Source: a virus (taxonomy: Duplodnaviria; Heunggongvirae; Uroviricota; Caudoviricetes). From it: DNA of 64,000 bases. Under the pieces are notes generated by a model. It was given only the letters and a program-made list of their open reading frames with translations. It did not search any database and had not been told where the DNA came from. Each line of letters opens with the position of its first letter. The stretch's first letter is position 1. A program made the translations under genes and the position numbers. The stretch is taken from the IMG/VR virus record IMGVR_UViG_3300031994_005355; one strand, written 5' to 3'. Below, in pieces: positions 1,431-48,182 of this stretch.

Positions 1431-1838
1431 ATGAACAATTATCATTCACATAATCGACACAAATATCTTCTACAGTTTCATTTGATATTTGTAGTGAAAT
1501 ATCGTAAAGCATTACTAAATATTAAGAAGATTGACGAAGATATTAAACAATTATTATTTGACAGTTGTCAGAAATACAATGTAGAAATTAAGTACATGGA
1601 AACAGATAAAGATCACTGTCACATGATGATCTCTACAGATCCAACAATCAGATTGTCTGACTTAGTCAGGTCTATGAAGTCATTTTCAGCATTTCATATT
1701 TGGAAAAAGCACGAAGGTATCCTTAAGAACTTCTTTTGGAAAGAACGTACATTCTGGACAGATGGCTACTTCATATCCTCTATTGGAGAAGTATCAGAAG
1801 AGACATTAAAGCAATATATAGAAAATCAAGGAAAATAA
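1431..1838 (+). CDS. tnpA: IS200/IS605 Y1 (HuH) transposase TnpA
   Basis: 135 aa; HuH-like HSHNRH motif near N-term, conserved KYRK, C-terminal TDGYFISSIG catalytic-Tyr region typical of IS200/IS608 TnpA. Confidence 0.85.
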   Translation: MNNYHSHNRHKYLLQFHLIFVVKYRKALLNIKKIDEDIKQLLFDSCQKYNVEIKYMETDKDHCHMMISTDPTIRLSDLVRSMKSFSAFHIWKKHEGILKNFFWKERTFWTDGYFISSIGEVSEETLKQYIENQGK

Positions 1839-1861
1839 GAATAAGAAAGGAGGTAGTATAC

Positions 1862-3475
1862 ATGGCAGACAGATATGAATTTTTACAAATTGTTGATAAT
1901 GTTCTTTATTATAAAAACTTTGGTTATGATAGCAAATTAAATGTTCTACATTATTTACTTAATGCTATTACTCTACAACATGAGCTACTTCCTATCTTTC
2001 ACAAAGTTAGCTCTGAAGAAGGTTTTTATTCTATTTACTGTACATTAAATAGTAAATACTATAATGTATTTCTAAATGGACACAGACAAAAGCTATTAGT
2101 CTCTAATGGTAAGAAGAGATTTCTAAATCAAATAATGGGTAACTGTAGATTACTCTACAATCGTATGGTAGCTAGAAACAATTACTGCATAGATCATAAA
2201 GAAGATACATTTGTGAAAAAATATGCTGAGTATACCAATCGTGGTTATAAGAATTATCATGATGGATATACATTACAATATGGTGAATATTTAACCTATG
2301 GTAGATATGATAAGAAGACTGAATCTTACTCACTATTAGTTTCTTATCCCAAAGAAGAAACTTTCTTTAATGGTTATTCCAGTATGTACTACAATTGCGT
2401 ATTACAACATTTTTTAGAAGCACGTAACCGTGCTTTTAAGGGACTTGGTAAGAGACCAACCTTTAAGAGTAAACATGGAAGTCAGAGTTGCCAGTTATCT
2501 TGTAACTGCTCAACTGATAGTTATGGATATAAAAACTTCAATTATTTCCAGCTCTTTAGTGTAGGGTACAATATGCATGATTATTCAGGCAGTAACAGAA
2601 CTAAGGTAGCTAAACTTTTTAGAGTAAATGAGGAGAATAATTGGAGAAAACCTAGATGTCAACACAGATTAGGTCTAAATCTAAACAAATCATGTACTAC
2701 TATTCAATCAAGAGATAAGTCTTATGAAATCAACACACTGACATTTACTATGTCTAAAAATCGTAAACCTGTATCTGCATATCTTAAGGATGATAACTTT
2801 GGAGCTAAGACAGTAACAATAACACGGGAGCCAAATGGTAAGTATTATGTATCTTTTCCAGTATGGGATTGTGTCGAAGTTCCTGAACCTAATGATAATG
2901 TAGTAGCATTTGACTTTGGAGTTAAAACTTTTCTTACATATTCAGATGGCTCTACAGAGGAAATGCCCAAATTCTTCGATGTCTACAAGAAACATCTTGA
3001 CAGAGTAAACACTGCTCTCCAAGGTACAACTAAGAACTCTAAGAAACACAAGAAGCTTCAATGTAAATTGGCTAATATTCATGCAAAGATCAAAAATTCC
3101 AGACGCAATTTCCATCATCAACTGACTCACAAAATGGTAAGTGAAAACCAAGTTATCATTAGTGAGGATCTTGATATTAAGGAAATGCTTCAGAATAAAT
3201 CTTTGCCTGCAGAGTTCCATCGTCATGTCGCTGACGCTTCTTGGTACGAGTTCACAAGACAATTAGAGTACAAATCTAAACGCTATGGAAGAACTTACAT
3301 CAAAGTTCCAAGACACTTTGCCTCATCTCAAATTTGCTCTAAATGTGGTAAGATCCATACTGAGATGAAAGATCTTTCCAATCGTCAAATGATTTGTAGT
3401 TGTGGAAACAACATCGATCGAGATCACAATGCTGCAATCAATATTGAGCAATTAGGTCTCTTAATGATATCGTAA
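1862..3475 (+). CDS. tnpB: TnpB (OrfB) RuvC-like RNA-guided nuclease, 537 aa
   Basis: ATG 1862 (M43 of track ORF) after GGAGGT RBS; RuvC-I VVAFDFGVKTF, RuvC-II IISEDLDIKEM, zinc finger CSKCGK...CSCGN, RuvC-III DRDHNAAINI. Confidence 0.85.
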   Translation: MADRYEFLQIVDNVLYYKNFGYDSKLNVLHYLLNAITLQHELLPIFHKVSSEEGFYSIYCTLNSKYYNVFLNGHRQKLLVSNGKKRFLNQIMGNCRLLYNRMVARNNYCIDHKEDTFVKKYAEYTNRGYKNYHDGYTLQYGEYLTYGRYDKKTESYSLLVSYPKEETFFNGYSSMYYNCVLQHFLEARNRAFKGLGKRPTFKSKHGSQSCQLSCNCSTDSYGYKNFNYFQLFSVGYNMHDYSGSNRTKVAKLFRVNEENNWRKPRCQHRLGLNLNKSCTTIQSRDKSYEINTLTFTMSKNRKPVSAYLKDDNFGAKTVTITREPNGKYYVSFPVWDCVEVPEPNDNVVAFDFGVKTFLTYSDGSTEEMPKFFDVYKKHLDRVNTALQGTTKNSKKHKKLQCKLANIHAKIKNSRRNFHHQLTHKMVSENQVIISEDLDIKEMLQNKSLPAEFHRHVADASWYEFTRQLEYKSKRYGRTYIKVPRHFASSQICSKCGKIHTEMKDLSNRQMICSCGNNIDRDHNAAINIEQLGLLMIS

Positions 3476-3813: not shown

Positions 3814-4797
3814 ATGACAGTAGATCAACAAATAAAAAATGACTTAGCAGCTTATTTTATAAGCAACAGTGTTACAGATGCTACAAAAGGAGTTGAAAAC
3901 CTAAGGTCTCTTCTAACACCTGCGATAATGCAAAATAATAATATTACAGATGCTACACCAGTTAATGTGCAAGCTTGGATAGCTCTTCAGATATTTAGTA
4001 ATAGTCCTATGCGTTACCATTCATCTGCGATACTTGGAACATTCATCTATGACTCGAGAATGTATAGTGTACAAGAACAAGAAACAAATACTTTAGTGAC
4101 CTATTATAGACTACACTATAATTCGGATTGTGGATTGAAACCTGTACTTCCTGAAGGATGTAGTTCTTGCGTAGAAATGTTTGCATTTTGTAAATTACCT
4201 GATAACTTCTCTTTAGATGATAGTTTCTATAAAGCAAACATTATGCATGCACATAATATGTTTTGTGGATGTACATTACCTTCTGGGTTTGTATTTCCAA
4301 TGTACAAAACAAAAGAAGAGTTACTAAACTATGTAAAAGAACTGCAGAGCAAGCCATACGGTCATACAGTCAAGGCTGAAAAGAAAGGAATTGTTATAGC
4401 AAGAGAAGCAAAAGAAAATGAAGAATTAGATGTTTACACCAAAAATGGAAATTTTGAAGGACACGAAACTGCTCAAAAAGGTGATATGATACTCACACGT
4501 GCGAATGATGATGGAACTCCATATGTAGATGATTATAGTCATATTAACAGTTGGAAAGTCTCAAGAGAAACGTTTGAGAAAAAGTACGACACAGCAAATC
4601 CTATAAAAGAAGGTGTCTACAAACCTGCTAGTGGAGTACAATTATTCATCCAAATAAATGATGATATTTCTTTTGATGCTCCCTGGGGTGAAAGACAGAA
4701 TATTCGCACACATGGTTATCTCAATATTACAGATCTTAATGATTTGTATGGTATTGCAGAAGAAGAATTCAAAGAAACATACAAGTATATAGAATAA
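3814..4797 (+). CDS. hypothetical protein, member 1 of shared-N-terminal-module family (IKxDLAxYF...AWxALQ...P.RY)
   Basis: 327 aa; N-terminal ~65 aa alignable to 22275..23798 and to aa ~90-160 of 45223..47241. Confidence 0.55.
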   Translation: MTVDQQIKNDLAAYFISNSVTDATKGVENLRSLLTPAIMQNNNITDATPVNVQAWIALQIFSNSPMRYHSSAILGTFIYDSRMYSVQEQETNTLVTYYRLHYNSDCGLKPVLPEGCSSCVEMFAFCKLPDNFSLDDSFYKANIMHAHNMFCGCTLPSGFVFPMYKTKEELLNYVKELQSKPYGHTVKAEKKGIVIAREAKENEELDVYTKNGNFEGHETAQKGDMILTRANDDGTPYVDDYSHINSWKVSRETFEKKYDTANPIKEGVYKPASGVQLFIQINDDISFDAPWGERQNIRTHGYLNITDLNDLYGIAEEEFKETYKYIE

Positions 4798-10137: not shown

Positions 10138-10425
10138 ATGGTATGGCATAGGATACATGAAGAATTGTATAATCCTAATCTCACTATAGCACAGAATATT
10201 GCTAATGGTTGTGATATACCACCAGAGGATAGCGTACCTGTTCTTGTGCTTGAGTGTGATAAGCCTAAACCTTTTGTAGGAAGATTGCATTATGATGAAG
10301 AAGTGAAAATGTTGAGGTGGTATGAATCATTACATGGTTACCCCTATTGTGACACAAAATTCACTTTATGGACACCTATAGATTTTCCTTCACAAGATGA
10401 ACAGGAAGCTCTATACAAAAATTAA
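10138..10425 (+). CDS. hypothetical protein; stop codon coincides with IS left end
   Basis: ATG 10138 after GAAAGGAG; TAA stop at 10423-10425 is the first 3 nt of the IS end TAAACGCC. Confidence 0.45.
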   Translation: MVWHRIHEELYNPNLTIAQNIANGCDIPPEDSVPVLVLECDKPKPFVGRLHYDEEVKMLRWYESLHGYPYCDTKFTLWTPIDFPSQDEQEALYKN

Positions 10426-10517
10426 ACGCCGGGTCCCGTGGATAGCAGCGGAGCTTTAGCTCCGCTGGAGCGGGAGGCATCAAATGATAAAATAAATCTT
10501 CAAGAAAGGAGGCAATT

Positions 10518-12044
10518 ATGAGAAAAACTTGTCTTGTAAAACAAGTTGTGCGTATACGACTTTATCCAAATAAAACTCAACAGATATGGCTTGACTGTAA
10601 TTTTCAAAATGCAATTGACTATCATAATTATCTCCTTGCAAATATTTATGAAGATGACGTGGAAATTGATGAAGAAACTGGTGAAGAAAAAGATGTTATT
10701 AGAATAAACTGGGATACTATAAATAGTAAATATGGATTGGCAACATTACAATCTAAATTCCATTATGCTCTTAGAAATGTTACAGAAGATAGAATACGTA
10801 CAGATCGAAATAATTTAAAGATTACACAGTATTATCGTGGACGTACTATTGAAAATATTTATGATCAAGTATGCAATGACGTTAAAAAGAACTTTTGTAC
10901 ATTTTATCGTGATGGTAAAGGGAAACCAAGATTTAAATCAAACCGTGGTAGAGTAACATTTAGGATGCCACAAAATAGCCGTGACTTACATTTAGTAAGA
11001 CGCAAAGATGAAATGAATCATGATAATGGTTTTGATTTCAAAATTAATAGAATTGAGAAGAAACACAGCTCTAAATTATCTCATAATTTAGGTTGGTTAC
11101 ATATACCATCTTGCGGTGCTGGTAATGATAATGCTGATGATTTTATAAAGTGCTTTGCACCATGTAACATAAGTAAGGAAGATATCAGTTCTATCACATT
11201 TATACGTGAAGCATCTGGAAAGTATTACGCCACTATTGTATTACGTATAGGAAGAGTCTATTTATTTAAAAAGCAAGCACTTGATGATATGTTATGTGAA
11301 AAACAAGTAGGTGTTGACATAAATCTTTCACCTAAAACAAGAGTAGTTACTAGTACTTTTCAGGGTGATGTTACTGAGTTCAAGTTCGAACAAAAAGAAG
11401 AGATAATACAAGCACCAACACCATATAAAGATTATTTCTCCAAACTACGTAAAGAGCAACGTTCACTCTCTCGCAAAGTAAAGTTTTCTAAGAATTGGTT
11501 TAAGCAAAAACAAAAGGTTGCTCACATTCATGAAAAGATTGCAAATATACGATTGAATTTCAATAGACAAACAGCAGCCTATCTAACCAAGAATTACCAA
11601 TCAATCGCAATCGAAGATTTGAGTATTACTCAAATGAAACGTGGTCAACCACGTTGGTTCCAGAAGCTCTACAATGATGCTAACCTATACCAGTTACGAC
11701 AGTGTATTCGCTGGTCTTGTCTTAAGACAGGAAGAGAACTAAACTACGTTTCACCAGAGCATACCTCAAAAACTTGTCATGATTGTTGGTACACTAATCA
11801 TGATTTGAAACTAGGACAGAGTTCCTGGGTATGCCCTAACTGTGGGGTAATCCATCATCGAGATAGGAATGCTGCTAGGAATATCTACAGCCTTGCATGG
11901 GCCTATGACGAGGTTGAAGGTGAATTATTAGAGAATCAAGTAACCTATGATCCATTCGAAGAGCGACAGCCAGTAAATAATCTCTATTTCCTAGAAAATC
12001 TTTCAAAACGTATTGGAGAAGAAGTAACAACAGTTTCAGCTTAA
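10518..12044 (+). CDS. tnpB: TnpB (OrfB) RuvC-like nuclease, 508 aa
   Basis: RuvC-I VGVDINLSP, RuvC-II IAIEDLSITQM, Zn finger CHDCW...CPNCG, RuvC-III HRDRNAARNI. Confidence 0.85.
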   Translation: MRKTCLVKQVVRIRLYPNKTQQIWLDCNFQNAIDYHNYLLANIYEDDVEIDEETGEEKDVIRINWDTINSKYGLATLQSKFHYALRNVTEDRIRTDRNNLKITQYYRGRTIENIYDQVCNDVKKNFCTFYRDGKGKPRFKSNRGRVTFRMPQNSRDLHLVRRKDEMNHDNGFDFKINRIEKKHSSKLSHNLGWLHIPSCGAGNDNADDFIKCFAPCNISKEDISSITFIREASGKYYATIVLRIGRVYLFKKQALDDMLCEKQVGVDINLSPKTRVVTSTFQGDVTEFKFEQKEEIIQAPTPYKDYFSKLRKEQRSLSRKVKFSKNWFKQKQKVAHIHEKIANIRLNFNRQTAAYLTKNYQSIAIEDLSITQMKRGQPRWFQKLYNDANLYQLRQCIRWSCLKTGRELNYVSPEHTSKTCHDCWYTNHDLKLGQSSWVCPNCGVIHHRDRNAARNIYSLAWAYDEVEGELLENQVTYDPFEERQPVNNLYFLENLSKRIGEEVTTVSA

Positions 12045-18442: not shown

Positions 18443-19984
18443 ATGTTAATACAGTACGCAATGTTACCTGTAATCCTTATCATTCTTGGAGTTATAATCC
18501 TACTTACTATTTTAGCTTCTGGATATGTCAAGGCTCCACCTGACATGGCTTTTATCATTTCAGGTATGCATAAGAATCCACGTATTCTTATAGGACGAGC
18601 AGGAATAAAAATTCCGTTCTTTGAGAGAGTCGATCGTCTATATCTTGGACAGATGACAGTTGACATTAAAACTGAACAGCCGGTACCTACAAATGATTTT
18701 ATCAATGTAAATGTGGATGCTGTCGCTAAGATCAGAATTATCACGGATACAGAAGTTGAACTAAACGTGAATGGAAACGTAGTAAAGGAAAAAGGAATAC
18801 TCCTCGCATCGAAGAACTTCCTTAATATGTCACCTGATCGTATTGCAAACGAACTTATGGACTCCCTACAGGGTAACATGAGAGAAATCATCGGAACACT
18901 CGACCTACGTTCTATAAACACAGACAGAGATAGTTTCTCAGACCAGGTTATGGAGAAAGCTAGCAAGGACATGGCTAAGCTTGGTATCGAGATAATCTCA
19001 TGTAACATTCAGAACGTTACCGATGAGAATGGTCTAATCAAAGATCTCGGTGCAGACAATACCTCTAGGATTAAGAAGGATGCAGCCATAGCAAAAGCAA
19101 ACGCCGACAAGGAAGTTGAAGTAGCACAGGCTGAAGCAAGTAAAGAAGCTAATGATGCACGTGTCAGTGCTGAAGCTGAAATAGCTCAGAAGAACACAGA
19201 CCTTGAAATCAAGAAAGCTGAACTAAAGAAAATGTCTGAAACAAAGCGTGCAGAAGCAGAAGCAGCTTTTGAGATTCAGAATCAGATACAGCAGAAGTCT
19301 ATAAAGACAGAGACCGTTAATGCAGAGATCGCACAGGCGGAAAGAGAAGCAGAGCTGAAAGAGAGACAGGTTCTTGTGCGTCAGCAGGAGTTAGCTGCTA
19401 CTGTTGAAAGAGAAGCAGATGCTAAGAAGTATGCAGCTGAAAAAGAAGCAGAAGCAAAACTCATACAGACACAGAAAGAAGCAGAGGCAATCCTCTACAA
19501 GCAGATGAAAGAAGCTGAAGCAATCAAGGCACAGGGTGAAGCTGAAGCTGCAGCCATCAGTGCTAAGGGTAAGGCTGAAGCAGATGCAATAGCAGCAAAG
19601 GGTCTGGCGGAAGCTGAAGCAATGGATAAGAAAGCAGAAGCTTACAAGAAGTACAATGGAGCCGCTATGGTTGAGATGTTTATCAATATTATGCCACAGA
19701 TGGCTGCTGAGATCGCTAAGCCGCTGTCCACGATTGATAAGGTAAATATCTATGGAGGAAGTGGAGCTGACAATGGTGTGTCTTCTATGTCTGGGAACCT
19801 TCCACTTGTGATGCAGCAGGTGATGGATACTATGACTGAAGCTACAGGTGTTGACATGCGGGAGATCATCAAGGCAGGAACATATGATGCTAAGGTCAAC
19901 AAGAACGTGAATGTGAATGGTCTTGACAATCTGGTCAAAATTGAAGAGACAAAGGTTGAGAGTCCTGTGGAAGAAAAGAAATAA
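18443..19984 (+). CDS. flotillin-like SPFH/Band-7 protein (FloT/YuaG family) with EA-repeat coiled coil
   Basis: N-terminal TM, PPDMAFIISG, SPFH core, long EA/AEAEA repeat region, C-terminal GAAMVEMFINIMPQMAAEIAKPLSTIDKVNIYGGSG closely matching B. subtilis FloT C-terminus. Confidence 0.85.
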   Translation: MLIQYAMLPVILIILGVIILLTILASGYVKAPPDMAFIISGMHKNPRILIGRAGIKIPFFERVDRLYLGQMTVDIKTEQPVPTNDFINVNVDAVAKIRIITDTEVELNVNGNVVKEKGILLASKNFLNMSPDRIANELMDSLQGNMREIIGTLDLRSINTDRDSFSDQVMEKASKDMAKLGIEIISCNIQNVTDENGLIKDLGADNTSRIKKDAAIAKANADKEVEVAQAEASKEANDARVSAEAEIAQKNTDLEIKKAELKKMSETKRAEAEAAFEIQNQIQQKSIKTETVNAEIAQAEREAELKERQVLVRQQELAATVEREADAKKYAAEKEAEAKLIQTQKEAEAILYKQMKEAEAIKAQGEAEAAAISAKGKAEADAIAAKGLAEAEAMDKKAEAYKKYNGAAMVEMFINIMPQMAAEIAKPLSTIDKVNIYGGSGADNGVSSMSGNLPLVMQQVMDTMTEATGVDMREIIKAGTYDAKVNKNVNVNGLDNLVKIEETKVESPVEEKK

Positions 19985-20060: not shown

Positions 20061-21107
20061 ATGATTAACTACAAACCAGTAAAACTGTCTGAACACAAAA
20101 ATATACTAGATATGGTACTAAAGATGGATGTACCATTTTTGAAGGAGGTGTATGCTAAGTATCAGGATAGAGTCTTATATGAGTTCTATCGTGCATCAGA
20201 GTTTGATGATGATAACTTATTCAAGGACGACTATAAAAAGTATGCAGAAGACTATGATCTTGCTATGCGTACATACGCTTGGTCTAAAGAAAATCCTAAG
20301 TTGTTCTTGACACGATCTCCAGATCCTCTGCGTATAGGAACAGATAACATCTGCGCCTACTTTATGGTACAGGACTGGTTAAAGTGGAAGAGAATGTATC
20401 GTATTTCTACGGACTTGTCAGAAGTGTTAGTAGATTCTGATATTGATAAAGTGGATTCTGAATATTTCACAAATCTTCCATTTGATCCTTGTTACATAGA
20501 GTTCGAAGGAATCAATGACCCTGCTGGTGTATTTGTAAGCATCTGTCACAATGAAGCTGTCAAGGAGCCTACAGGAATAACAATAAACATTTGTGCTGTT
20601 AGAACTGGTTACACATGGTTTAACTCTATGTTATATATCGATATTCCATTTAAAGGTTCAAAGTCACTGTGGGAAATCGTAAATGAATCTATGGTGAAAG
20701 ATTGCTCAGATGATACTAAGACATGGTTATTCTTGATACTACAATCTCTAGTATATCTACAGTCAGCTAAGCCTGATGTAGAAGAGGGTAAAGAAGTAGA
20801 GTCTACTGTGTTTCAGTATTCAACAAAGCAGCACAAAGCAGTAAGAACAACAGATAAGGTCAGAAGCTGGGATGTTGGATTCCGTTTCAATGTCTATGAC
20901 AAGAATGGTAAGCCTGCAAGTAAAGCTGATACTGACTCAACAACTATGCATGCAAAGAAGCGTCCTCATGTTCGTAAACGCCATTGGCACAAGTACTGGT
21001 GTGGACCTAAAGGCAGTCAGCATCTTGAACTCAGACTCATTGAGATGACATACGTAAACTGCAACAATTCAGAGTCTATTCCAGTCCTAAGTAGTAAAGT
21101 GGTTTGA
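20061..21107 (+). CDS. hypothetical protein
   Basis: ORF track; 3-prime end lies in 50-bp direct repeat. Confidence 0.5.
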   Translation: MINYKPVKLSEHKNILDMVLKMDVPFLKEVYAKYQDRVLYEFYRASEFDDDNLFKDDYKKYAEDYDLAMRTYAWSKENPKLFLTRSPDPLRIGTDNICAYFMVQDWLKWKRMYRISTDLSEVLVDSDIDKVDSEYFTNLPFDPCYIEFEGINDPAGVFVSICHNEAVKEPTGITINICAVRTGYTWFNSMLYIDIPFKGSKSLWEIVNESMVKDCSDDTKTWLFLILQSLVYLQSAKPDVEEGKEVESTVFQYSTKQHKAVRTTDKVRSWDVGFRFNVYDKNGKPASKADTDSTTMHAKKRPHVRKRHWHKYWCGPKGSQHLELRLIEMTYVNCNNSESIPVLSSKVV

Positions 21108-21130
21108 TATGAAAGGAGGTACATTGTGTT
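21082..21130 (+). repeat. ~50-bp direct repeat copy 1 (gene 3-prime end + RBS + start)
   Basis: ttccagtcctaagtagtaaagtggtttgatatgaaaggaggtacattgtg vs copy at 21621. Confidence 0.5.
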
Positions 21131-21349
21131 GCTATCAGACTTAGATATAAACAGATATTCATCAATGGTTACAAATGCTGTATGTGAAGCACATGGTGTA
21201 TCTCCTACAGATAAGATACAACGTGCAATCTTAGCTTGGAATATATTGAATCCAAAGGATCCAGTATTGAATAATTCTCCTAACTATACGAACTAATATC
21301 AACATTCGATGAATGTAAAGTGGCTAGAGCAGGAAGTGAGGAATGAGAC

Positions 21350-21637
21350 ATGAAAGCTACAACAGTATCTTTATTATGTTTGGTTGTTTTAGTAACTGGT
21401 TTGGTTTTTCTTTTAACAGGATGCAATACCAGTAAATCTTCAAATAAGGGAGATGAAAGGTTTATAGAAGTAAACGGAGCATCAGGTACTATCGTGGGTA
21501 ATGAATACAGAATTGTTTACGACAGGACAACAAAAGTTATGTACTACATGTCAGATAGCCTTTATAATAAAGGCAGTCTGTGTCCATTATACAATGAAGA
21601 TGGTTCAATAATGATATATTCCAGTCCTAAGCAGTAA
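21350..21637 (+). CDS. lipoprotein
   Basis: Signal peptide with LLTGC lipobox. Confidence 0.55.
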   Translation: MKATTVSLLCLVVLVTGLVFLLTGCNTSKSSNKGDERFIEVNGASGTIVGNEYRIVYDRTTKVMYYMSDSLYNKGSLCPLYNEDGSIMIYSSPKQ

Positions 21638-21668
21638 AGTGGTTTGATATAAAAGGAGATACATTATG
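21621..21668 (+). repeat. ~50-bp direct repeat copy 2
   Basis: ttccagtcctaagcagtaaagtggtttgatataaaaggagatacattatg; read in different frame than copy 1. Confidence 0.5.
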
Positions 21669-21995
21669 TTACTCATATACTTATTCATTGGCGGTCTTAT
21701 TTATATTTTTGTTAAAAGTGCAATTATAGCATATACAGACTGGCGAGAAAAGGGATTTTTACCTACATTATTTTTAAGCATTCTCTGTGCAATTCTTGCA
21801 ATAGTAAATGTTTATATTTTATACGATGTTTATACATCAGCAGTAAACCATGATAAAGAAGTACAGACAAAAATAGAATCTGGAGATTATCAGATTTATT
21901 ATAATGGTATCTTAGTAAGTGCCAATGATATAGAAAACATCAATAATTATGATGTTGAGATATTTGAAGATTCACACAAGATAGTTTTAAAATGA
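21666..21995 (+). CDS. membrane protein (paralog of 31826..32161; shared C-terminal YQIYYxxxLxSANDIxxIxxYxxExFxDSHKIVL)
   Basis: N-terminal TM helices and conserved C-terminal block. Confidence 0.5.
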   Translation: MLLIYLFIGGLIYIFVKSAIIAYTDWREKGFLPTLFLSILCAILAIVNVYILYDVYTSAVNHDKEVQTKIESGDYQIYYNGILVSANDIENINNYDVEIFEDSHKIVLK

Positions 21996-22043
21996 GAGGA
22001 TATTTCACTAATTGTACAAGGTATAGAAGGATGGTGAAATTAT

Positions 22044-22238
22044 ATGGATAATTCTGTAAATATAAATGAACGTTCACTGATAGAATATTATAATGCAAAT
22101 AATATAGATTATGATTCTCAGATAGAAATTGATGCTAGTCTAGTCACTGACACTACTTGCGAAATTTATGGTGTAGATAAAACAAATAAAACGCAACGTG
22201 CATTACTAACACTTAGACTACTTGGAAAGATATGTTAG
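22044..22238 (+). CDS. hypothetical small protein
   Basis: ORF track. Confidence 0.35.
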   Translation: MDNSVNINERSLIEYYNANNIDYDSQIEIDASLVTDTTCEIYGVDKTNKTQRALLTLRLLGKIC

Positions 22239-22274: not shown

Positions 22275-23798
22275 ATGAAAGCATCTGAAAGAATCAAATC
22301 AGATTTAGCTACATACTTTTCAAAGAATGGTATTACAGATGCTGAAAAGAGTATTGTTAAATTAAAAGGACTTCTTCATCAAAGTGTATTAGAGGCTGAA
22401 GGATTGACGCAAGAGAGTGAGTTAGTTAAAGCATGGACAGCTCTACAGTTACAAGAAGGTTTACCTTTTAGGTATGATGTTAAAACCAATAGTATTTATA
22501 ATATTGACACTGTTGTGGAGTTTAAAACTAAACGTTTTTTATACAATATTATAACTACAAGTGTTTTAAATAAAACAGGATGCTTTGCAATAACTGGTTC
22601 GAGAAGAGTGGGTAAAACAATTCTCTTAAAGCAGCTGTATAATGATAATATGTCTTCATCAGAATTCTTAGACTGTTCGGTACGATATCCTATGAACTTC
22701 AATGAATATTATAATACTATTATACAAGCGGGTAAAAAGTATGTATTTATAGATGAAGTTTGTAAGCTTACTGACAATCATTGTGAATTTGTAAGTGCTA
22801 CTAAAGCTGCAGCATCTAAGCTATGCATTATCATAACAGGAAGTACAAGTTTCGTAATTGAAGACATGTGTGAGGATATTGGAAGGGGTGAAATTTACAC
22901 ATTACCGCCATTTATGTATATAGAGACTTTGAGTTGGCAAAAAGATGCCACATTAAATGATGTTATGCAGTATGTATCTAATGAATCATTCATAACATAT
23001 TTGAAAAGTCAGTTCATGTCAAATATGGAATTGATAGATTATATGCGTGGTGTTGTACACGATACCATAGCATCATATAGAAATCATTCGACTCTGGAGG
23101 GAGAGATTTCGTTATCAACTAAAGAGTTAGATAAGTGTTTAATTTACATATCAGTGTGTCAATTATTATACCGTAGGAGTACTGATAATCAGTTTATAGA
23201 TATGCCAAATATAGGTCCTGTAGTAAAAGAGTGTCTTAGAAGTAAAGACATTTTTAGTGTAACAGAGCGTCTTGGTTTGAAGAATAATACAATAGAAACT
23301 GTACTTGACATTTTATGTAGTTGTAATCTTGCTAAGAAAATAAGAGTATTAAAGGATACACATAATACAAGTATTGATGCATTTTTATTTGAGTATCCAT
23401 GGTACGTTAGCTATTGTTTAAGCCCGAGTATACAGGACAGTGAAATTTTATTAGATTTATGGGTTGAATATTATATTCTTATGAAAGCATACTATGTATA
23501 CTCTGATATTGCAAAGTTTAGAACTGGAGCTCAAGAAGAGATTGATGTGTTATACAGAATTAACGGATGGTTAGGATTAGAAATAAAAAATAGACCTGAT
23601 ACAAACTTAACAAGAAAATATAAAGCAAAGCTACAAGAATTATCTAATACATATAGTATTTCAGATATATTTATTTCAAATAAGTCATGTAATGCTAAAA
23701 TAGCAGCAAGTCTGGAACTAGAATACATTAGGTTGCTTAATGAAGGATTAACATATTCAACATTTAATATTCAGGATCTTTTAAATAAATACTTTTGA
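22275..23798 (+). CDS. AAA+ P-loop ATPase (COG1373/DUF4143-like) with shared N-terminal family module
   Basis: Walker A GSRRVGKT, Walker B VFIDEV; N-terminal IKSDLATYF...VKAWTALQ...PFRY homologous to 3814 and 45223 ORFs. Confidence 0.6.
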   Translation: MKASERIKSDLATYFSKNGITDAEKSIVKLKGLLHQSVLEAEGLTQESELVKAWTALQLQEGLPFRYDVKTNSIYNIDTVVEFKTKRFLYNIITTSVLNKTGCFAITGSRRVGKTILLKQLYNDNMSSSEFLDCSVRYPMNFNEYYNTIIQAGKKYVFIDEVCKLTDNHCEFVSATKAAASKLCIIITGSTSFVIEDMCEDIGRGEIYTLPPFMYIETLSWQKDATLNDVMQYVSNESFITYLKSQFMSNMELIDYMRGVVHDTIASYRNHSTLEGEISLSTKELDKCLIYISVCQLLYRRSTDNQFIDMPNIGPVVKECLRSKDIFSVTERLGLKNNTIETVLDILCSCNLAKKIRVLKDTHNTSIDAFLFEYPWYVSYCLSPSIQDSEILLDLWVEYYILMKAYYVYSDIAKFRTGAQEEIDVLYRINGWLGLEIKNRPDTNLTRKYKAKLQELSNTYSISDIFISNKSCNAKIAASLELEYIRLLNEGLTYSTFNIQDLLNKYF

Positions 23799-41876: not shown

Positions 41877-41963
41877 TGTTATAGTAACCAAACCACGTAT
41901 TGCAACCCTACGGTAATGTACAATATAGTATGTTACCCTAGTGTTGTAAGAAAGGAGAAACAA

Positions 41964-43199
41964 ATGAATTTATCAGAACTATTAAACAATCCACAGTTTG
42001 CAGACCTTCCGGAAGAGAAAGAGGAAAAGAAAGCAAACCACCGTCACACAGACATGAAGCGTCCTGAAGAGGAAGTCAATCTTCTATCTCTTGCTTTAGA
42101 GGACACGGAATATCGTCGTCACACTGCTGACCCTACACCTGACCTCATAGAAGTTAAAAATGGACTTACTCCTGACGAGCTTCCTAAAGCTACTGAGGAC
42201 GCATATCTAGTTTGGTGTGAATGGTCAAGGCAGACATGGTTCTGTCCCACGAAGAAGTGCCTCAATCAAAACTTTATCTATCGAGAAGATCTTCTCATTG
42301 AAAAGACTGACACACAGGAAGCTCTGGAAAACTTCTATCATGATCATGGTGGGATACACAATCCTGGTATCATTTCTACCCGCAAGTGTTACATCCTTGA
42401 CGATCCTGCAAACGAGAGCTACGAGGTCTACTATGATTCAGCGATGCCAAGCCTTAAGTATGGAAAAGCAACACCGAACGGCATGTTTGTTCATTGCTAC
42501 GACAACCGATTCCACAGAGACATGGCAATCCTTGAACTTGATGACCTCTACAGTAACCAGTCATCAAAGAAAGCTGGACGCCTTGTTAGTAGACCATATG
42601 GAGCTGATGAAGCAATCATAGTTTCAGATGGTGCATGGATGAAAGACTCATGCTCAGCTTCTTTTGTCTACCTTGACAATACTCTTGTCATTGATCACAC
42701 AGTTGGCTTCTGTCCTAGTGAACCTGATCAGGCAGTCCTCATCGCTGAGATCACAGGTGCGACTGAAGCTCTCAAGATGTGTGCACAGAACAATAAAACC
42801 AACATCAAATACTACTATGACAACACATCTATACTGAATGTTTTCAAGAATCACAAGACAGAGTATATTCGTGAAATCAAGGAGTACAAAGACTTGCTTG
42901 CAGATATGGACAAGCAGGGTTATAAGATCGAGTTCATCGAGCTTCATCCTAAGACAGGTGAAGAACGTAATAAAGATAACAAAGCTTTAATGTTCTTCCA
43001 TAACAAGTGTGATCAGAACTGTCGCAACATGGCTGACATTTTCACAAAAGACTACCGTGTTTTCGCTACAGACTCTAAGCGTGATGGCTCCACATATGAA
43101 GATGTGAAGAACTCTATGCCTAAGCCGAAAAACAAGAATGTTGGTAACTTCAAAGCTGGAGCACACGGTGGTAACAATAAGTATGGACGAAGATTCTAA
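41964..43199 (+). CDS. RNase H (type 1) domain protein with ~200-aa N-terminal domain of unknown function
   Basis: ATG 41964 after AAAGGAG; IIVSDGAW (D), LIAEITGATEALK (E), YYYDNTSI (D), HNKCDQNCRNMAD (H..D) order as in RNase HI. Confidence 0.65.
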   Translation: MNLSELLNNPQFADLPEEKEEKKANHRHTDMKRPEEEVNLLSLALEDTEYRRHTADPTPDLIEVKNGLTPDELPKATEDAYLVWCEWSRQTWFCPTKKCLNQNFIYREDLLIEKTDTQEALENFYHDHGGIHNPGIISTRKCYILDDPANESYEVYYDSAMPSLKYGKATPNGMFVHCYDNRFHRDMAILELDDLYSNQSSKKAGRLVSRPYGADEAIIVSDGAWMKDSCSASFVYLDNTLVIDHTVGFCPSEPDQAVLIAEITGATEALKMCAQNNKTNIKYYYDNTSILNVFKNHKTEYIREIKEYKDLLADMDKQGYKIEFIELHPKTGEERNKDNKALMFFHNKCDQNCRNMADIFTKDYRVFATDSKRDGSTYEDVKNSMPKPKNKNVGNFKAGAHGGNNKYGRRF

Positions 43200-43226: not shown

Positions 43227-43586
43227 ATGAATAATAAAGTAGTAGAAGAAGGAACAGCATGGTTTGATATAGCAATGCATAACAATTTAATGAGACTTGC
43301 TATTAAAAGAGTGATTGTAAGTAATCACCATACAATAGTATTATGGAATGATAATACAAAAACAATAGTTACTTGTCGTGAAGATGATGAAGATAACTAC
43401 TCAATTGAGACAGCAGTCATGGCAGCATTTCTTAAGAAGATTTTGGGAGCACATGCTTTTCATAAGAAACTTGAGAATGGCTTAAATCGTGTAGTAGTAC
43501 AGGATCAGTTTATTAAAGTAAAGAAACCTGTGACAAGAGATTCTAAAGGTAAGTTTGTAAAGAAAAAGACTACCAAAACAAACTAA
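43227..43586 (+). CDS. hypothetical protein
   Basis: ORF track; AAAGGAAC RBS. Confidence 0.45.
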   Translation: MNNKVVEEGTAWFDIAMHNNLMRLAIKRVIVSNHHTIVLWNDNTKTIVTCREDDEDNYSIETAVMAAFLKKILGAHAFHKKLENGLNRVVVQDQFIKVKKPVTRDSKGKFVKKKTTKTN

Positions 43587-43645: not shown

Positions 43646-43717
43646 ATGCCCCGTAGTCAAGAGGTAAGGCATCGGACTTTGACTCCGTCATTCGCGGGTT
43701 CGAATCCCGCCGGGGTA
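43646..43717 (+). tRNA. tRNA-Gln (anticodon TTG)
   Basis: Acceptor tgccccg/cggggta, anticodon loop ctttgac, T-arm gcggg-ttcgaat-cccgc; resembles bacterial tRNA-Gln. Confidence 0.8.
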
Positions 43718-43737
43718 GTTTATTAAAGGATTAAATC

Positions 43738-45198
43738 ATGACTACATTAAATATTGAGGAACTGCTTTATTCAAATAGTATATGGGAATCAGTACTGGGT
43801 GAAATGTGGGTACGTAAAGTAGAACCTGAAACGGTTGCAAGAATTACTATGTTAGATTATCGCTACGATATTTGTAATAAACTTATTACAGGTAGTTATA
43901 AATTTAATCCACCTAAATTAGTACATATACCGAAAGATGATGGAACACTGCGTGATCTTCTTATTTTAGAGGACCAAGATAGGATAGTCATGCAGGTTCT
44001 ATATAAAATATATTATAGTTTATACAAAAGCAATATTCATTCATCATGTATGAGTTATCAGACTGGAGTATCTGTAAAAGATATTGCTGTACAAATACGT
44101 AACGGACTTAAATCAGAGTTACAGCGTTATAAACTTGATATATCAAAATATTTCGACTCTGTGCCTCAAGATGTAATAAACAGAGAATTGAATAATATGG
44201 ATCCTACATCTGGACCAACAGTATCTCTTTATAATTTCTATAATGATAACCGTATCATTGTGCATGGTAAAGAAGTTGAGCATTTCAAATCATTATGTCA
44301 AGGTTGTTCATTTAGTGCATTACTAGCAAATGTTATACTCTATGATATTGATGAATATTTATCAGCGCACGCTGATATGTATATCCGTTATTCTGACGAT
44401 ATGTACATTCAAGATGCTAATGTTAATGCATTAATTGTTAAAGCAAAAGAGATGCTTGCTCATAAAGGTCTCATACTAAAAGACTCTAAGGTTCAGCAAC
44501 TTGCAACCTCATTTGATTTTGTTGGTGTACATATTTCACCTACTAGACTATCCATAGGTAAAAAAGGATTAAGAAATATATGCAATAATATCAAACAAAA
44601 GTTGAAGAATAAAACTAGTCTTGAAAGAGCAATACGTGCAGTGCAGAGTTATTTATTATCTTCTGATACTAATGGTTATTCAGCACTAAGTTATTGGTTT
44701 AATATTTGTACAAATGTGGATGACATTATAAAGTTGGACAGAATGATTAAAGATGAAATAAGATATCACTTCACCAACAAACATAATATTGTACATAATA
44801 TACATCAGTTACCTAATCAAGCTTTCAAAGAAAGTGGTTGGGTGTCACTTGAATATTTATACAGATTGTACAAACACGATAAGAATGCATATAAAGCATA
44901 TAGTGCTTACATTCTGCATAAGTATATGCTTACACCTAGTAAGATACGTTCGTATATGACAATTGATAAGATATCTAGTGATTTACTCAAATTTTGGGAA
45001 ACAGCAAAATATGCTAAGCATAGTCCATTTATAACGTATGAAAAACCACTAGATGTTGATTTCAATATCTCATCGTATGAAAGTAATACTGCACGAGAAT
45101 ATATGTGTAACATCATTAAAAATGCAACAATTGATTTTGGTGAGGATAAGTTCATAAAAGTAACTGATGAGTTATTTTTATTTAAAGATTGGTTTTGA
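43738..45198 (+). CDS. reverse transcriptase (group II intron/retron/Abi-UG lineage) with thumb-like C-terminal extension
   Basis: RT1-2 LVHIPKDDGTLRDLLILEDQDRIVMQVL, RT3 YKLDISKYFDSV, RT4 QGCSFSALLANVIL, RT5 YIRYSDDMYI, RT6 GLILKDSKV, RT7 FDFVGVHI; ~190 aa after RT7. Confidence 0.85.
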   Translation: MTTLNIEELLYSNSIWESVLGEMWVRKVEPETVARITMLDYRYDICNKLITGSYKFNPPKLVHIPKDDGTLRDLLILEDQDRIVMQVLYKIYYSLYKSNIHSSCMSYQTGVSVKDIAVQIRNGLKSELQRYKLDISKYFDSVPQDVINRELNNMDPTSGPTVSLYNFYNDNRIIVHGKEVEHFKSLCQGCSFSALLANVILYDIDEYLSAHADMYIRYSDDMYIQDANVNALIVKAKEMLAHKGLILKDSKVQQLATSFDFVGVHISPTRLSIGKKGLRNICNNIKQKLKNKTSLERAIRAVQSYLLSSDTNGYSALSYWFNICTNVDDIIKLDRMIKDEIRYHFTNKHNIVHNIHQLPNQAFKESGWVSLEYLYRLYKHDKNAYKAYSAYILHKYMLTPSKIRSYMTIDKISSDLLKFWETAKYAKHSPFITYEKPLDVDFNISSYESNTAREYMCNIIKNATIDFGEDKFIKVTDELFLFKDWF

Positions 45199-45222: not shown

Positions 45223-47241
45223 ATGAAAGAACTAGAGTTCGCTACAATAAGATATGCTCGTAATATTTTGCATAAGTACTATCTCACAATAGGTGACCTT
45301 GAAGGTTATTGTCGTACATCATGTACCTATGATACAACTGTTTTAGATTTATATAAGGAAAAGTATGATAAGATTTTAAAAGTAATTCCTAAGGCTTTAC
45401 CTGTAACAGAAGATTCATATACTTTTGAAAAAGAACAAAATATAGTAGAAGCAAGTAGAGCTCAATTTTTAAAAGTAATAAAAAAGGATGTAGCTCAGTA
45501 TGCATTAGATAATGGATATACTGATGTACCAAAAATGGTTAATGACTTAGCTTCAACAATAACTGATGGTGTGTTAAAATCTAAATATAAAGATATGTTA
45601 CCAGACCTTAGTGAATTAGAATCACCACTTATTAAGGCTTGGCTTGCTATACAGATAACTAATAATTCTCCCTACATTTATGTTCCGGTACAAAATGATC
45701 ATGGAAGATTAGTATATGGTCATTTCAAGAATACAGCTTCTAATGGGATATTTGATGATCAGACATTTAAGGATGTAATAAATCCTCATATAACATGTAA
45801 TGCGCATTCAAATAAACCAAGAATTTCGACAAATATAAGAACCATGCGTTATAATCCTTATCTTGTACGTAGATGGTTACCTAATCAGTTTCTTGAAGAA
45901 TTTATGAACATAGAGAATAATAAAGTACTTGGATTTAATGAAAAGTTATTTGAATCGTATAAAGAACTTGGATTTGAGTGGCGTCATTGTAAATCCTATG
46001 ACAAGGATAAGTATTACGTTAAAAGTATGGAAATTAAAGACCACACAAAACCTATTTATTCAAAGTTGTGTATTATAGGTGAATTTATAGGAGCTATAAG
46101 AGATAATTCAAATCTACGTGTTATAAAGAAAATAGATTATAAAGCTTATTCTAAAATACTAGATTACATACATGCATGTGTCTTAGATAATCACCAGGCT
46201 GACACAACAGTGTTAGAAAAATTATTACCAGATGTCGATCTATTTAAATTTATTGCTTTAGATAAAACTCCAGCAATGAAAGAGAGTATAAAAAGTGCTT
46301 ATGAGGTTCTTGAATATTTAGCTATAGATAAATTTGTAGGCTCTTCACGTGATGAAAAAGTGATTAAGGAAGTACGGGATTTTATACAAAGTGTGACATC
46401 TGATACCGAACTTTTACAACGACAACCTAGCGTAGCATTGATAAATGAAAATGATATGTTATCATTCTTTGATCTTCTTTATATGAAGTATGGTAATGGC
46501 TGGGTACAGGTATGTTATCCTGATGTATCACCTGAAGCAAAAGCTAGAAGTATAAGTAGACAGTACGAACGGAGAGCTCGTACCAATTATTTACCTCAGT
46601 ATGTACGTGAGTTACGTAGTAGAAAGTCAAAGAGAGCCTGGTCAAGGTATTTAAGTGCCATTACTAATATAATACAGAATCCTAATTATGTAACTGATAC
46701 GATCGCAGACATTAATGAAATCATTAATAATGCATTATTGAATAATGTTAAATATGCAGTAGACGAAGTAAAAGCTGCAAGTGATGAGTATCCCTATCTA
46801 AAAGAATTATTAGAGAGGAAACAAAATGTATTTAAGTGGCGCATATTCAACGGATTTACATATTATGGTTCTGATGCATATTATCGTATACACAGAGATA
46901 TGGTATTTACAAAGCGTCGTATAAAAGCACAAACACCAAACTGGTACCACATATTCAATAAAAAAGAAGATTTAAAGGTTGCTGAGTATTATACGGAGTT
47001 AGATAATCTTAACACATTTGAAGACTTCTTTAGACGTGGTGCTGTCTATACTGTGATACATTACCGTGTGTCATACAAACACGAGTCCCTTGACACAGTT
47101 TGTCGTGAGGTCACTAAAGCATTTTCAAAAGGTATGAGTGTAGTGGAGATCGAACACGAATTCTTAAACAACGTTGAAGATTGCACGGCTTATTACAATT
47201 ATATGCAAGAAGCACATTTTAATACACTTATAAAGAGATAA
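45223..47241 (+). CDS. 672-aa RT-associated protein containing the shared family module
   Basis: 25-nt gap after RT; aa ~90-160 IKKDVAQYA...IKAWLAIQITNNSPYIY homologous to N-termini of 3814 and 22275 ORFs. Confidence 0.55.
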   Translation: MKELEFATIRYARNILHKYYLTIGDLEGYCRTSCTYDTTVLDLYKEKYDKILKVIPKALPVTEDSYTFEKEQNIVEASRAQFLKVIKKDVAQYALDNGYTDVPKMVNDLASTITDGVLKSKYKDMLPDLSELESPLIKAWLAIQITNNSPYIYVPVQNDHGRLVYGHFKNTASNGIFDDQTFKDVINPHITCNAHSNKPRISTNIRTMRYNPYLVRRWLPNQFLEEFMNIENNKVLGFNEKLFESYKELGFEWRHCKSYDKDKYYVKSMEIKDHTKPIYSKLCIIGEFIGAIRDNSNLRVIKKIDYKAYSKILDYIHACVLDNHQADTTVLEKLLPDVDLFKFIALDKTPAMKESIKSAYEVLEYLAIDKFVGSSRDEKVIKEVRDFIQSVTSDTELLQRQPSVALINENDMLSFFDLLYMKYGNGWVQVCYPDVSPEAKARSISRQYERRARTNYLPQYVRELRSRKSKRAWSRYLSAITNIIQNPNYVTDTIADINEIINNALLNNVKYAVDEVKAASDEYPYLKELLERKQNVFKWRIFNGFTYYGSDAYYRIHRDMVFTKRRIKAQTPNWYHIFNKKEDLKVAEYYTELDNLNTFEDFFRRGAVYTVIHYRVSYKHESLDTVCREVTKAFSKGMSVVEIEHEFLNNVEDCTAYYNYMQEAHFNTLIKR

Positions 47242-47368
47242 ATAACTAAAGCTTTGTCCTAGGCTACACTAACTATGTTTCTTAATCCACAATACAAATC
47301 ACTACGTGATTCGTATTGATCTTAATCGTATTGTAGAAATAGGACAGTTAGAAACCAGGTTAGTGTAT

Positions 47369-47450
47369 GCACCGCTGATGGAATTGGCAGACATGCAAGA
47401 TTTAGGTTCTTGTGCCGGAAGGCGTGTGGGTTCAAGTCCCACGTGGTGCA
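47369..47450 (+). tRNA. tRNA-Leu (anticodon TAG), type II
   Basis: Acceptor gcaccgc/gtggtgc, anticodon stem caaga/tcttg loop tttaggt, variable hairpin gcc-ggaa-ggc, T-arm gtggg-ttcaagt-cccac. Confidence 0.75.
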
Positions 47451-47534
47451 TCGACATTGGTGTGTACACCTCCAGTATAATCCTGTTAACTAATCTTGCA
47501 TCACAAGTACACACCAATGTCATAAAGGAGCATT

Positions 47535-48182
47535 ATGGATATAATGACAATAATATCTTTTCTTACTGCACTGGGTAATACTATGACACACCCTGAGACA
47601 ATAGTAATATGTGGTGGTACTTCTATCGCATTGGAACATGGATTTAGACAATCGACTGAAGATATTGACTGCATAGAGTGCAGTGCTTATACAGCAAAGA
47701 TAGCACATATAATAGCACGACATTACACTTTGCATATAGCATTAAGTAGTCATGTTTGTGTAACTGACTCGTACAGTCCAAAGTTATTGTATTATGCAAC
47801 TACTTATGGTAAGTTTGGAAATCTTACTGTAAAAACAATATGTGGTGTACCATTACTTTGTATGAAGTTAAAGTCATATCGTCAAAATAGTAAAGATAGG
47901 ATTGACTGTGAATTTCTACTCAAAGAAGCAATTACTTATGGAAAGACGTACGACGATGTTCTTACTACGTTCAAAGACATTTATGGTAATGAAGCACTAA
48001 TGCCTATAGCTGCTGAGACAGCTTTACGTAGAGCATTCAACATACAAAATGTTGAAGAGATACAGGATAAACTTTCTAAGTTTTCAAAACTTATCAATGA
48101 TGGTCTTCTTAGTATAAATGACATTCCGGTAGAATATCGTAATCAAATTCTTGAATATACTTTGGAGAAGGCTGATGACTAA
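47535..48182 (+). CDS. nucleotidyltransferase-fold protein
   Basis: ICGGTSIALEHGFRQSTEDIDCIE matches GGxS...DxD NTase motif. Confidence 0.5.
   Translation: MDIMTIISFLTALGNTMTHPETIVICGGTSIALEHGFRQSTEDIDCIECSAYTAKIAHIIARHYTLHIALSSHVCVTDSYSPKLLYYATTYGKFGNLTVKTICGVPLLCMKLKSYRQNSKDRIDCEFLLKEAITYGKTYDDVLTTFKDIYGNEALMPIAAETALRRAFNIQNVEEIQDKLSKFSKLINDGLLSINDIPVEYRNQILEYTLEKADD

Follow-up and report, generated by a model that had tools for sequence, protein, structure and literature searches.

Three otherwise unrelated proteins, here called A, B, and C, encoded in the stretch of DNA analyzed (64,000 nucleotides, "the window" below) share a module of about 77 residues. By sequence comparison, this module defines a genuine domain family that is rare, has not been described before, and is distributed as an adaptor might be. 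Its most probable role, to which we would give a probability of roughly 0.4, is that of a non-enzymatic protein–protein docking or adaptor domain that resembles, by analogy, the effector-associated domains (EADs) of bacterial conflict systems.

The shared module and its family

The module occupies amino acids 1–77 of both A (bp 3814–4044, plus strand; BLASTP and profile matches) and B (bp 22275–22505, plus strand; profile matches and an AF2 model), and in C it is internal, at amino acids 85–166 (bp 45475–45720, plus strand), with a six-residue insertion in the loop before helix 4. The first-pass annotation had described an alignable segment common to the three proteins, placed at the N-terminus of A and B and starting around residue 90 in C, and formal testing of significance bears out both the similarity and the positions. 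Pairwise BLASTP comparisons of the module give E = 1e-12 for A and B (38% identity over 68 amino acids), 9e-9 for A and C, and 8e-8 for B and C. An HMM made from the three window segments matches only A, B, and C in a six-frame translation of the window, and a non-circular test with an independent profile, built without any window sequence from seven relatives that lie on other contigs, finds the same three proteins there (E = 1.5e-28 for A, 2.2e-21 for B, and 6.4e-14 for C). The next-best window match to the independent profile (E = 0.089) is a non-significant trace in a 64 amino acid ORF upstream of B, and the profile searches of the window found no module in the genes that flank B.

When modeled alone from an 11-sequence alignment, the module gives a confident, compact AF2 model (pLDDT 83.8, pTM 0.73) with predicted helices at residues 3–17, 23–32, 36–42, and 49–61 followed by a β-hairpin at residues 65–76. 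The earlier claim of a module joined to unrelated C-terminal parts therefore holds as a genuine and statistically robust unit, and the model suggests that this unit folds separately. Residues D10, Y14, D22, L30, A53, W54, L57, and Q58 are invariant or nearly so, and K8, T21, K25, R66, and Y67 are mostly conserved. A tally of its charged residues makes the module neutral to acidic, which argues against DNA binding. Searches of Pfam, PHROG, NCBIfam, and PADLOC found no significant family, the module profile matched nothing below E = 0.25 among PDB sequences, and Foldseek comparisons of the model found no counterpart in the PDB (best E = 1.4) or among the BFVD viral structures (best E = 0.075); as far as these tools tell, the module is thus not an ordinary HTH, winged helix, or death-fold. 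That the similarity is due to chance, or that the module is a common generic domain such as an HTH, is hardly credible and is refuted as far as the tools used can test, since the only hints of it are sub-threshold (DUF2164, E = 0.013 in one member, and PDB entry 3erm, E = 0.25), whereas the pairwise E values run from 1e-12 to 8e-8 and those of the independent profile from 1e-14 to 1e-28, with no family or fold match.

At the DNA level, the module copies resemble one another only in short stretches (68–79%) within the coding module, and comparison of the copies found no common sequence upstream of the genes. This confinement of likeness to the coding module, with unrelated upstream regions, marks the copies as old protein-level paralogues and not a recent repeat or mobile cassette. 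The A, B, and C genes lie 18–23 kb apart in the window, and other members lie farther off. Nothing links the position of A directly after the first IS copy, pointed out in the first-pass annotation, to the module: only A adjoins a TnpB element, and the module copies give no sign of mobility at the DNA level.

The window has a GC content of 34%, and nearly all of its ORFs of at least 100 amino acids lie on the plus strand. Most of its proteins match no family. It carries tRNA genes and a bona fide tmRNA gene, two TnpB elements, an SPFH/flotillin gene, and an AcrVA2-like gene. Capsid, portal, and terminase genes were not seen near any member of the module family or elsewhere in the sequence examined, so that the DNA is probably, but not provably, from a huge phage.

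The family extends beyond the window. An exhaustive profile search, run against 1.84 billion representative proteins, found only 11 real clusters with the module, the other matches being partial, repetitive, or a 60 amino acid fragment; the exhaustive search was needed, as a word-index homologue search with the three-module alignment gave no relatives. Three of these clusters (P0001–P0003) are the window proteins A, B, and C. In P0004, P0005, P0009, and P0010 the module is followed by DUF285/BspA-type repeats, P0007 and P0011 have the same architecture as B (module, then an AAA_14 domain), and P0006 and P0008 are fragments. The fusion of module and AAA_14 domain was found in that search only in P0001, P0007, and P0011. 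Another protein, P0016, falls into one 90%-identity cluster with P0004 (at least 90% identical), and it and P0009 are encoded outside the window on the 293,727-bp contig k141_6138959 of ENA record ERZ27256871, to which A, B, and C belong. That genome therefore has at least five members, exactly one of which (B) is fused to an NTPase, and the three members described at first are correct for the window and a lower bound for the genome.

Searches of GenBank phages found no member of the module family and, for B, C, and a 1746 amino acid protein, no match in either DNA or protein; IMG/VR scans with B, the reverse transcriptase (RT) discussed below, and the module alignment found no relatives; and a scan of JGI metagenomes with module patterns found no member. 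When the JGI metagenomes were scanned with P0004, 35 generic DUF285 loci were found, none of which (0/35) has the module. Two loci from a scan of 185,579 GTDB species genomes (L050 and L051) match only in the eight-residue search pattern and its surroundings (17–18 bits) and were rejected as artefacts of selection by that pattern. On this sampling of sequences the module appears confined to huge phage-like elements of a narrow lineage.

Proteins that carry the module

The most common partner of the module is the DUF285/BspA-type repeat. Gene A (bp 3814–4797, plus strand) encodes a 327 amino acid protein made of the module, about two putative, degenerate repeats of this type, and a unique C-terminal part of about 160 amino acids. 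Residues 1–160 of A align with P0004, P0005, P0009, and P0010 (E = 1e-33 to 1e-39), and residues 122–161 give several matches to the repeat unit of P0010 and other DUF285 members; A alone has no Pfam match at E ≤ 0.1, PF03382 included. The C-terminus of A was at first called unknown, and this now applies only to its last ~160 amino acids, which have no assigned family (a weak PGDYG match has E = 0.047), since the part before them aligns with the repeat proteins. Pfam family PF03382 is present in P0005, P0010, P0016, and P0017. The same architecture occurs on other contigs in P0004, P0005, P0010, and P0017, the last of which is encoded on a related short contig (L049) that has two such genes in tandem (P0017 and its neighbor) beside a T2SSE-type ATPase gene. 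In P0009 the module lies at amino acids 26–91, after a 25 amino acid leader, and its gene directly follows those of three large Flg_new/DUF285/LRR_5 proteins and a sortase-like gene.

Gene B (bp 22275–23798, plus strand) encodes a 507 amino acid protein in which the module is followed by an AAA_14 P-loop NTPase domain and a C-terminal region that may be DUF4143-like. The recognition of B as a P-loop ATPase from its GSRRVGKT and VFIDEV motifs was correct: these are its Walker A (amino acids 108–115) and Walker B (amino acids 157–162) sequences (together bp 22596–22760, plus strand), and they lie inside a Pfam AAA_14 match at amino acids 104–218 that is well above the family cut-off (E = 2.8e-14; 53.7 bits against a cut-off of 27). 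Several models of the PADLOC candidate system PDC-S01 also match B (E = 5.5e-14). Its relatives of like architecture are P0007 (41% identical over 250 amino acids) and P0011 (25%). The match of the B C-terminus to DUF4143 (PF13635) is sub-threshold (E = 0.15; 12.2 bits against a cut-off of 28.1), and a D...ExK-like motif (EEIDV...LEIK) is present at amino acids 421–438, where DUF4143 would lie. The AF2 model of full-length B, made from four sequences, is too poor (pLDDT 42.6) to judge the C-terminal fold.

Gene C (bp 45223–47241, plus strand) encodes a 672 amino acid protein that consists of an 84 amino acid leader, the module, and an ORFan region of about 500 amino acids. Directly upstream lies the gene for a UG27-like RT (bp 43738–45198, plus strand; 486 amino acids), which matches Pfam RVT_1 and, among the PADLOC models, RT_UG27 (E = 3.5e-65, 218.6 bits; the next-best model scores 102 bits). 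As had been stated, C is encoded immediately after the RT; its start lies 24 nucleotides after the RT stop codon, and an AAAGG Shine-Dalgarno-like site is present in the intergenic sequence, so the two genes are likely co-transcribed. A scan for promoters and terminators around the two genes gave results no better than those for shuffled sequence. The 151-nucleotide gap upstream of the RT gene is mostly taken by a 72-nucleotide tRNA-Gln gene.

The further proposal that C is the partner of this RT does not hold up well. Outside the module C has no PDB or GenBank phage match, and it has no homologue in the large protein collection besides C itself. The three closest relatives of the RT (35–38% identical) have unrelated small downstream genes and no C-like neighbor. 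The RT neighbor that recurs instead is a 119 amino acid protein without the module (bp 43227–43586, plus strand), which is similar to the 118 amino acid product of the gene directly downstream of the RT homologue P0022 in a related locus, L010 (phmmer E = 5.9e-21). This lack of a conserved pairing suggests that C is a lineage-specific addition beside the RT and not an established RT partner. C and its neighbors do not resemble the genes that surround the UG27 RT in Bacteroides phage BS-TP1, and nhmmer found no match here to the non-coding region of that phage. When C was compared with this phage by tblastn, gp74 of BS-TP1 gave a weak match (E = 0.002, in a tiny database) that is limited to the loop insertion of C, without the module motifs, and is ascribed to chance. 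Diversification of the DGR type was also rejected, since the RT is UG27-like and the direct repeats of at least 60 nucleotides include no template/variable repeat pair.

A proposed docking domain and its alternatives

If the module is a docking domain, it would bring functionally unrelated proteins that one genome encodes together on a shared partner, the tethered set here being one AAA_14 NTPase, at least three DUF285/BspA-type repeat proteins, and one ORFan beside a UG27-like RT. In the simplest form the contact would be a homotypic one between modules; B might then act as a nucleotide-driven NTPase hub, as has been proposed for the EADs, and the DUF285 repeat proteins and C would be recruited as binding or output subunits. 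The homology of the modules and its rarity, the architectures, the paralogy within one genome, the predicted fold, and the lack of a significant match to known families and folds come directly from the analysis; what we infer is that the module binds at all, what it binds, that B is a hub, and that RT activity is in any way involved. Several features point in this direction: the fold is small and non-enzymatic, it sits at varied positions in the chain, it is equally conserved on an NTPase, on repeat proteins, and on an ORFan, and there are several paralogues per genome. In addition, the homology is confined to one unit of ~77 amino acids, both main architectures recur on other contigs, and there are many conserved polar and aromatic positions for so small a domain, namely K8, D10, Y14, D22, W54, Q58, R66, and Y67, with no match to a catalytic family. 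The placement of this compact predicted domain at the N-terminus of A and B, after 25 amino acids in P0009, and after 84 in C fits a folded interaction domain and not a terminal signal. The overall pattern fits the published EAD definition (PMC7159879).

Comparison of the module sequences with one another is consistent with such a role, though not in all respects. The copy closest to the B module, with 51% identity, is that of P0016, a DUF285 paralogue from the same genome and the most consensus-like copy overall, whereas those of the ATPase relatives P0007 and P0011 are only 40% and 32% identical to it, respectively. The modules thus do not group by architecture, which suggests that the same constraint acts on them in every context. 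Nor do same-genome modules in general resemble one another more closely than those of different contigs do, and co-evolution of cognate pairs is therefore not apparent. This absence of special similarity among same-genome copies weakens the case for an adaptor, as do the dispersed positions of the genes, the absence of a recognizable enzymatic effector, and the phage nature of the genome, which is no more than probable. Of the targeting, adaptor, or sensor roles offered by the first-pass annotation, adaptor or targeting stands as the best, and tentative, reading, and a sensor is one of the alternatives below.

It is rather unlikely that the module reflects lineage-specific domain shuffling with no shared present-day function. 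A DUF285 paralogue family, expanded in this phage lineage, would then have had the module as its original N-terminal cap; recombination would have carried copies of the module onto the ATPase and into C, and it would persist for the sake of structure or solubility. Most members are indeed DUF285 proteins (A, P0004/P0016, P0005, P0009, P0010, and P0017 with its tandem neighbor), their homology runs from the module into the repeats, the L049 pair is a tandem duplication, and the C copy, with its insertion, is the most divergent (25–38% identity). However, the ATPase fusion has been kept on at least three contigs with 25–41% identity over the ATPase region and with a module as well conserved as in the DUF285 proteins, which indicates that purifying selection has long acted on the module in proteins other than those with DUF285 repeats, and the 35 DUF285 loci that do not have it indicate that the module is not simply part of DUF285 proteins.

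A virion-incorporation or anchoring domain, which would dock its carriers onto or into the phage particle, is likewise fairly improbable. It could serve to package injected proteins in the capsid interior or to anchor surface or tail appendages; the DUF285 repeats would then serve as adhesins, whereas the ATPase and C would travel into the cell along with the DNA. Phage proteins that combine a common N-terminal segment for anchoring or targeting with C-termini that vary are well established, as with the T4 capsid-targeting sequences and the anchor domains of tail spikes. DUF285/BspA-type repeats are typical of binding and adhesion, and those that carry the module have no signal peptide; P0009 is encoded beside the three large repeat proteins and the sortase-like gene described above, and a genome of 293,727 bp is large enough to package many proteins. 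On the other side, the internal module of C and the one behind a leader in P0009 are unlike cleavable terminal tags, and the earlier suggestion of an N-terminal packaging tag fits these two proteins poorly. There are also no capsid, portal, or terminase genes in the sequence examined, an AAA_14 NTPase with a nuclease-like tail would be an unusual virion cargo, and the BFVD viral structures gave no match.

It is less likely still that the module is a cis-acting regulatory or sensor domain that binds a small ligand, a peptide, or nucleic acid and controls its own C-terminal part without any complex between members. N-terminal accessory domains on AAA+/STAND-type NTPases often serve as sensors or effectors, the module has a cluster of conserved polar and aromatic residues (D10, Y14, D22, W54, Q58, R66, and Y67), and the member genes lie scattered, share no upstream DNA, and seem to be expressed each on its own. 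Regulatory input is, however, hard to rationalize for passive DUF285 repeat proteins, which are the majority of the family; there is no similarity to known ligand-binding or DNA-binding folds, and the neutral-to-acidic charge argues against nucleic-acid binding.

Should the module prove to be a docking domain, it would be a handle on an AAA_14 ATPase of candidate-defense type, on cytoplasmic BspA-like repeat proteins, and on the neighbor of a UG27 RT; a common partner or shared complex would connect these three kinds of uncharacterized phage proteins, and the adaptor-coupling logic of bacterial conflict systems would extend to a virus. A bolder and decidedly speculative extension is that a huge phage encodes its own EAD- or death-domain-like coupling network, in which the AAA_14 hub, by means of a homotypic adaptor fold not described before, would gather LRR-like DUF285 binders and the RT-linked protein in a complex driven by nucleotides. 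Such a complex would parallel, in a virus, the NTPase assemblies of cellular immunity or apoptosis and be used for counter-defense or superinfection exclusion; we consider this unlikely. If the module is only a shuffled domain of one lineage, it is a new but minor family in a few uncultivated genomes.

Comparison with known systems

The repeat proteins of the family belong with the DUF285/BspA-type proteins, which have 26-residue repeats (PF03382), in that four of them carry PF03382 and A aligns with these through its own first repeat units. They differ from the generic proteins of this type, as found at 35 loci, in having the module, those with the module have no signal peptide, and A ends in a different C-terminal domain. 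B is like the AAA_14 (PF13173)/COG1373-type ATPases in exceeding the Pfam cut-off with both Walker motifs. It is unlike them in its added N-terminal module of ~77 amino acids, which has no significant Pfam match, and, as DUF4143 usually follows the ATPase domain in these proteins, in the sub-threshold status of its DUF4143 match (E = 0.15).

The anchor heads of phage proteins (the T4 capsid-targeting sequence and tail-spike anchors) and the LXG/WXG-type toxin heads share with the module proteins a conserved head joined to variable tails. The module, in contrast, is a predicted folded domain of 77 amino acids that can be internal, its proteins have no toxin tail or immunity gene, and it has no sequence or fold similarity to these heads. 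The analogy with polymorphic effector systems, drawn at first, does not carry far: searches matched neither A nor C to a family of toxins or enzymes, B is an NTPase and the other members are repeat proteins, the downstream genes are unrelated ORFans with no immunity-like pairing, and the most common partner of the module is the non-enzymatic DUF285/BspA-type repeat.

UG27 RTs are class 2 UG/Abi RTs of gut phages that occur with proteins of unknown function (clusters 337 and 346 (336)) and a putative ncRNA, and they are not enriched in defense islands (Mestre et al. 2022, NAR; PMC9226505). The RT next to C is like them in its match to RT_UG27 and its location in a phage-like genome. It is unlike them in having no sizeable non-coding gap or ncRNA region beside it, where phage BS-TP1 has a 1.35-kb gap, and in that C has no similarity to the genes that flank the RT in BS-TP1 or in the three closest relatives.

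The closest parallel is with the EADs (EAD1–10 and bDLD), small, mostly helical, non-enzymatic domains of bacterial NTP-dependent conflict systems, one copy of which is present on an NTPase core and further copies on other proteins of the same genome, with homotypic coupling to the core proposed (Kaur, Burroughs, Iyer, and Aravind 2020, eLife; PMC7159879). The second EAD copy is usually encoded next to the core or in one operon with it, additional copies can occur at other places in the genome, and the partner copies carry effector or signaling domains that are usually enzymatic, although repeat-forming proteins are also common partners and are listed as effectors (PMC7159879). The module copies are unlike EADs in being neither adjacent nor in one operon, and their partners are non-enzymatic DUF285 repeats and the ORFan region of C, with no enzymatic effector or signaling domain. 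The module has no significant Pfam match and no sequence link to a described EAD, the NTPase is of the AAA_14 type and not a vWA-MoxR, iSTAND, or GAP1 core, and the carrier is a huge phage-like element and not a multicellular bacterium; homotypic binding of the module is hypothetical. The module is like them, on the other hand, in being small, non-enzymatic, and mainly helical (by the AF2 model, four helices and a hairpin in 77 amino acids), and in its arrangement, with one copy at the terminus of an NTPase (B) and others on A, C, P0009, and P0016, all encoded on the same contig.

TnpB elements and their hairpins

Two TnpB genes of the IS605 family, each with a Cas12f1-like TNB domain, lie in the window (1736-3475 and 10518-12044), and a GC-rich hairpin element of 98 nt stands ahead of each of them, with left ends at 1338-1435 and 10399-10496. 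The two hairpins are 80% identical to each other, and a similar hairpin (cagcggagctttagctccgctg) is found between the first TnpB copy and gene A, a member of the module family with degenerate DUF285/BspA-type repeats.

Genes and repeats upstream of B

Directly upstream of B, the family member that joins the module to an AAA_14 P-loop NTPase, is a 64-aa ORF on the same (+) strand (22038-22235). Its product bears a faint, non-significant likeness to the module's helices 1-2 (SLIEYYNANNIDYDSQIEID; E 0.089) and could be the leftover of a partial duplication. A few genes upstream of B lie, in this order, genes for an SPFH/flotillin protein (18443-19984; Band_7 2.5e-20, Flot 2.1e-10) and for a 348-aa protein that is AcrVA2-like by record (20061-21107; PF26125, also phrog_6160, 2.8e-20). 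This part of the window also contains a 67-nt repeat, whose two copies (21077-21143 and 21617-21683) are 540 nt apart and 87% identical; the repeat covers the end of one gene, the Shine-Dalgarno site and the start of the next gene. Two more pairs of diverged paralogous small genes are present at 9768-9906/12636-12774 and 21870-21988/32036-32154.

Family members elsewhere

P0009 and P0016 are further members of the module family encoded outside the window on the same 293,727-bp contig. Within locus L006 (1908-11008), a sortase-like gene and three genes for large Flg_new/DUF285/LRR_5 proteins of 500, 991 and 902 aa come before the P0009 gene, which is followed by NERD, RNase_T and Toprim genes and one encoding a protein of >2,400 aa. 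The P0016 neighborhood (locus L009, contig positions 112,351-133,196) includes genes for proteins of bacterial signaling type: a Cache/MCP-signal chemoreceptor-like protein, a response-regulator receiver, a guanylate kinase, a PDZ protein and a pair of cold-shock proteins. On a related contig (L049, 591-3719), two tandem genes that combine the module with DUF285 follow a T2SSE-type ATPase gene; the called start of the second removes helix 1, and the whole module is present in the upstream open frame.

Surroundings of the reverse transcriptase and C

A tRNA-Gln(UUG) gene (43647-43718) ends 19 nt ahead of the start of the UG27-like reverse transcriptase (RT) gene, and a tRNA-Leu(UAG) gene (47368-47452) follows C, the module family gene next to the RT; the RT and C together thus have a tRNA gene on either side. 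Such adjacency is not kept in the related RT loci examined. Just downstream of C lie genes for a DUF6036/AbiEii-like nucleotidyltransferase (47535-48182) and a PilZ-domain protein (48714-49325). The gene two positions upstream of the RT (41916-43199) encodes a 427-aa product whose RNase H-like match is weak (phrog_531, E 0.0028).

The window also carries a bona fide tmRNA gene of this phage-like genome (33432-33813, + strand; Rfam RF00023, 110.8 bits; ARAGORN tag peptide AKPVAMAA*). A tmRNA with an identical tag peptide lies on a related 180-kb contig (L010, 9575-9956), about 1 kb downstream of an RT homolog. The sole RT neighbor in common with a related genome is a 119-aa protein (43227-43586), which matches L010 8600-8956 (E 6e-21); it is encoded upstream of the RT in the window and its counterpart downstream of the RT in L010. 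The genuine accessory protein of UG27 in this lineage may be this 119-aa protein.
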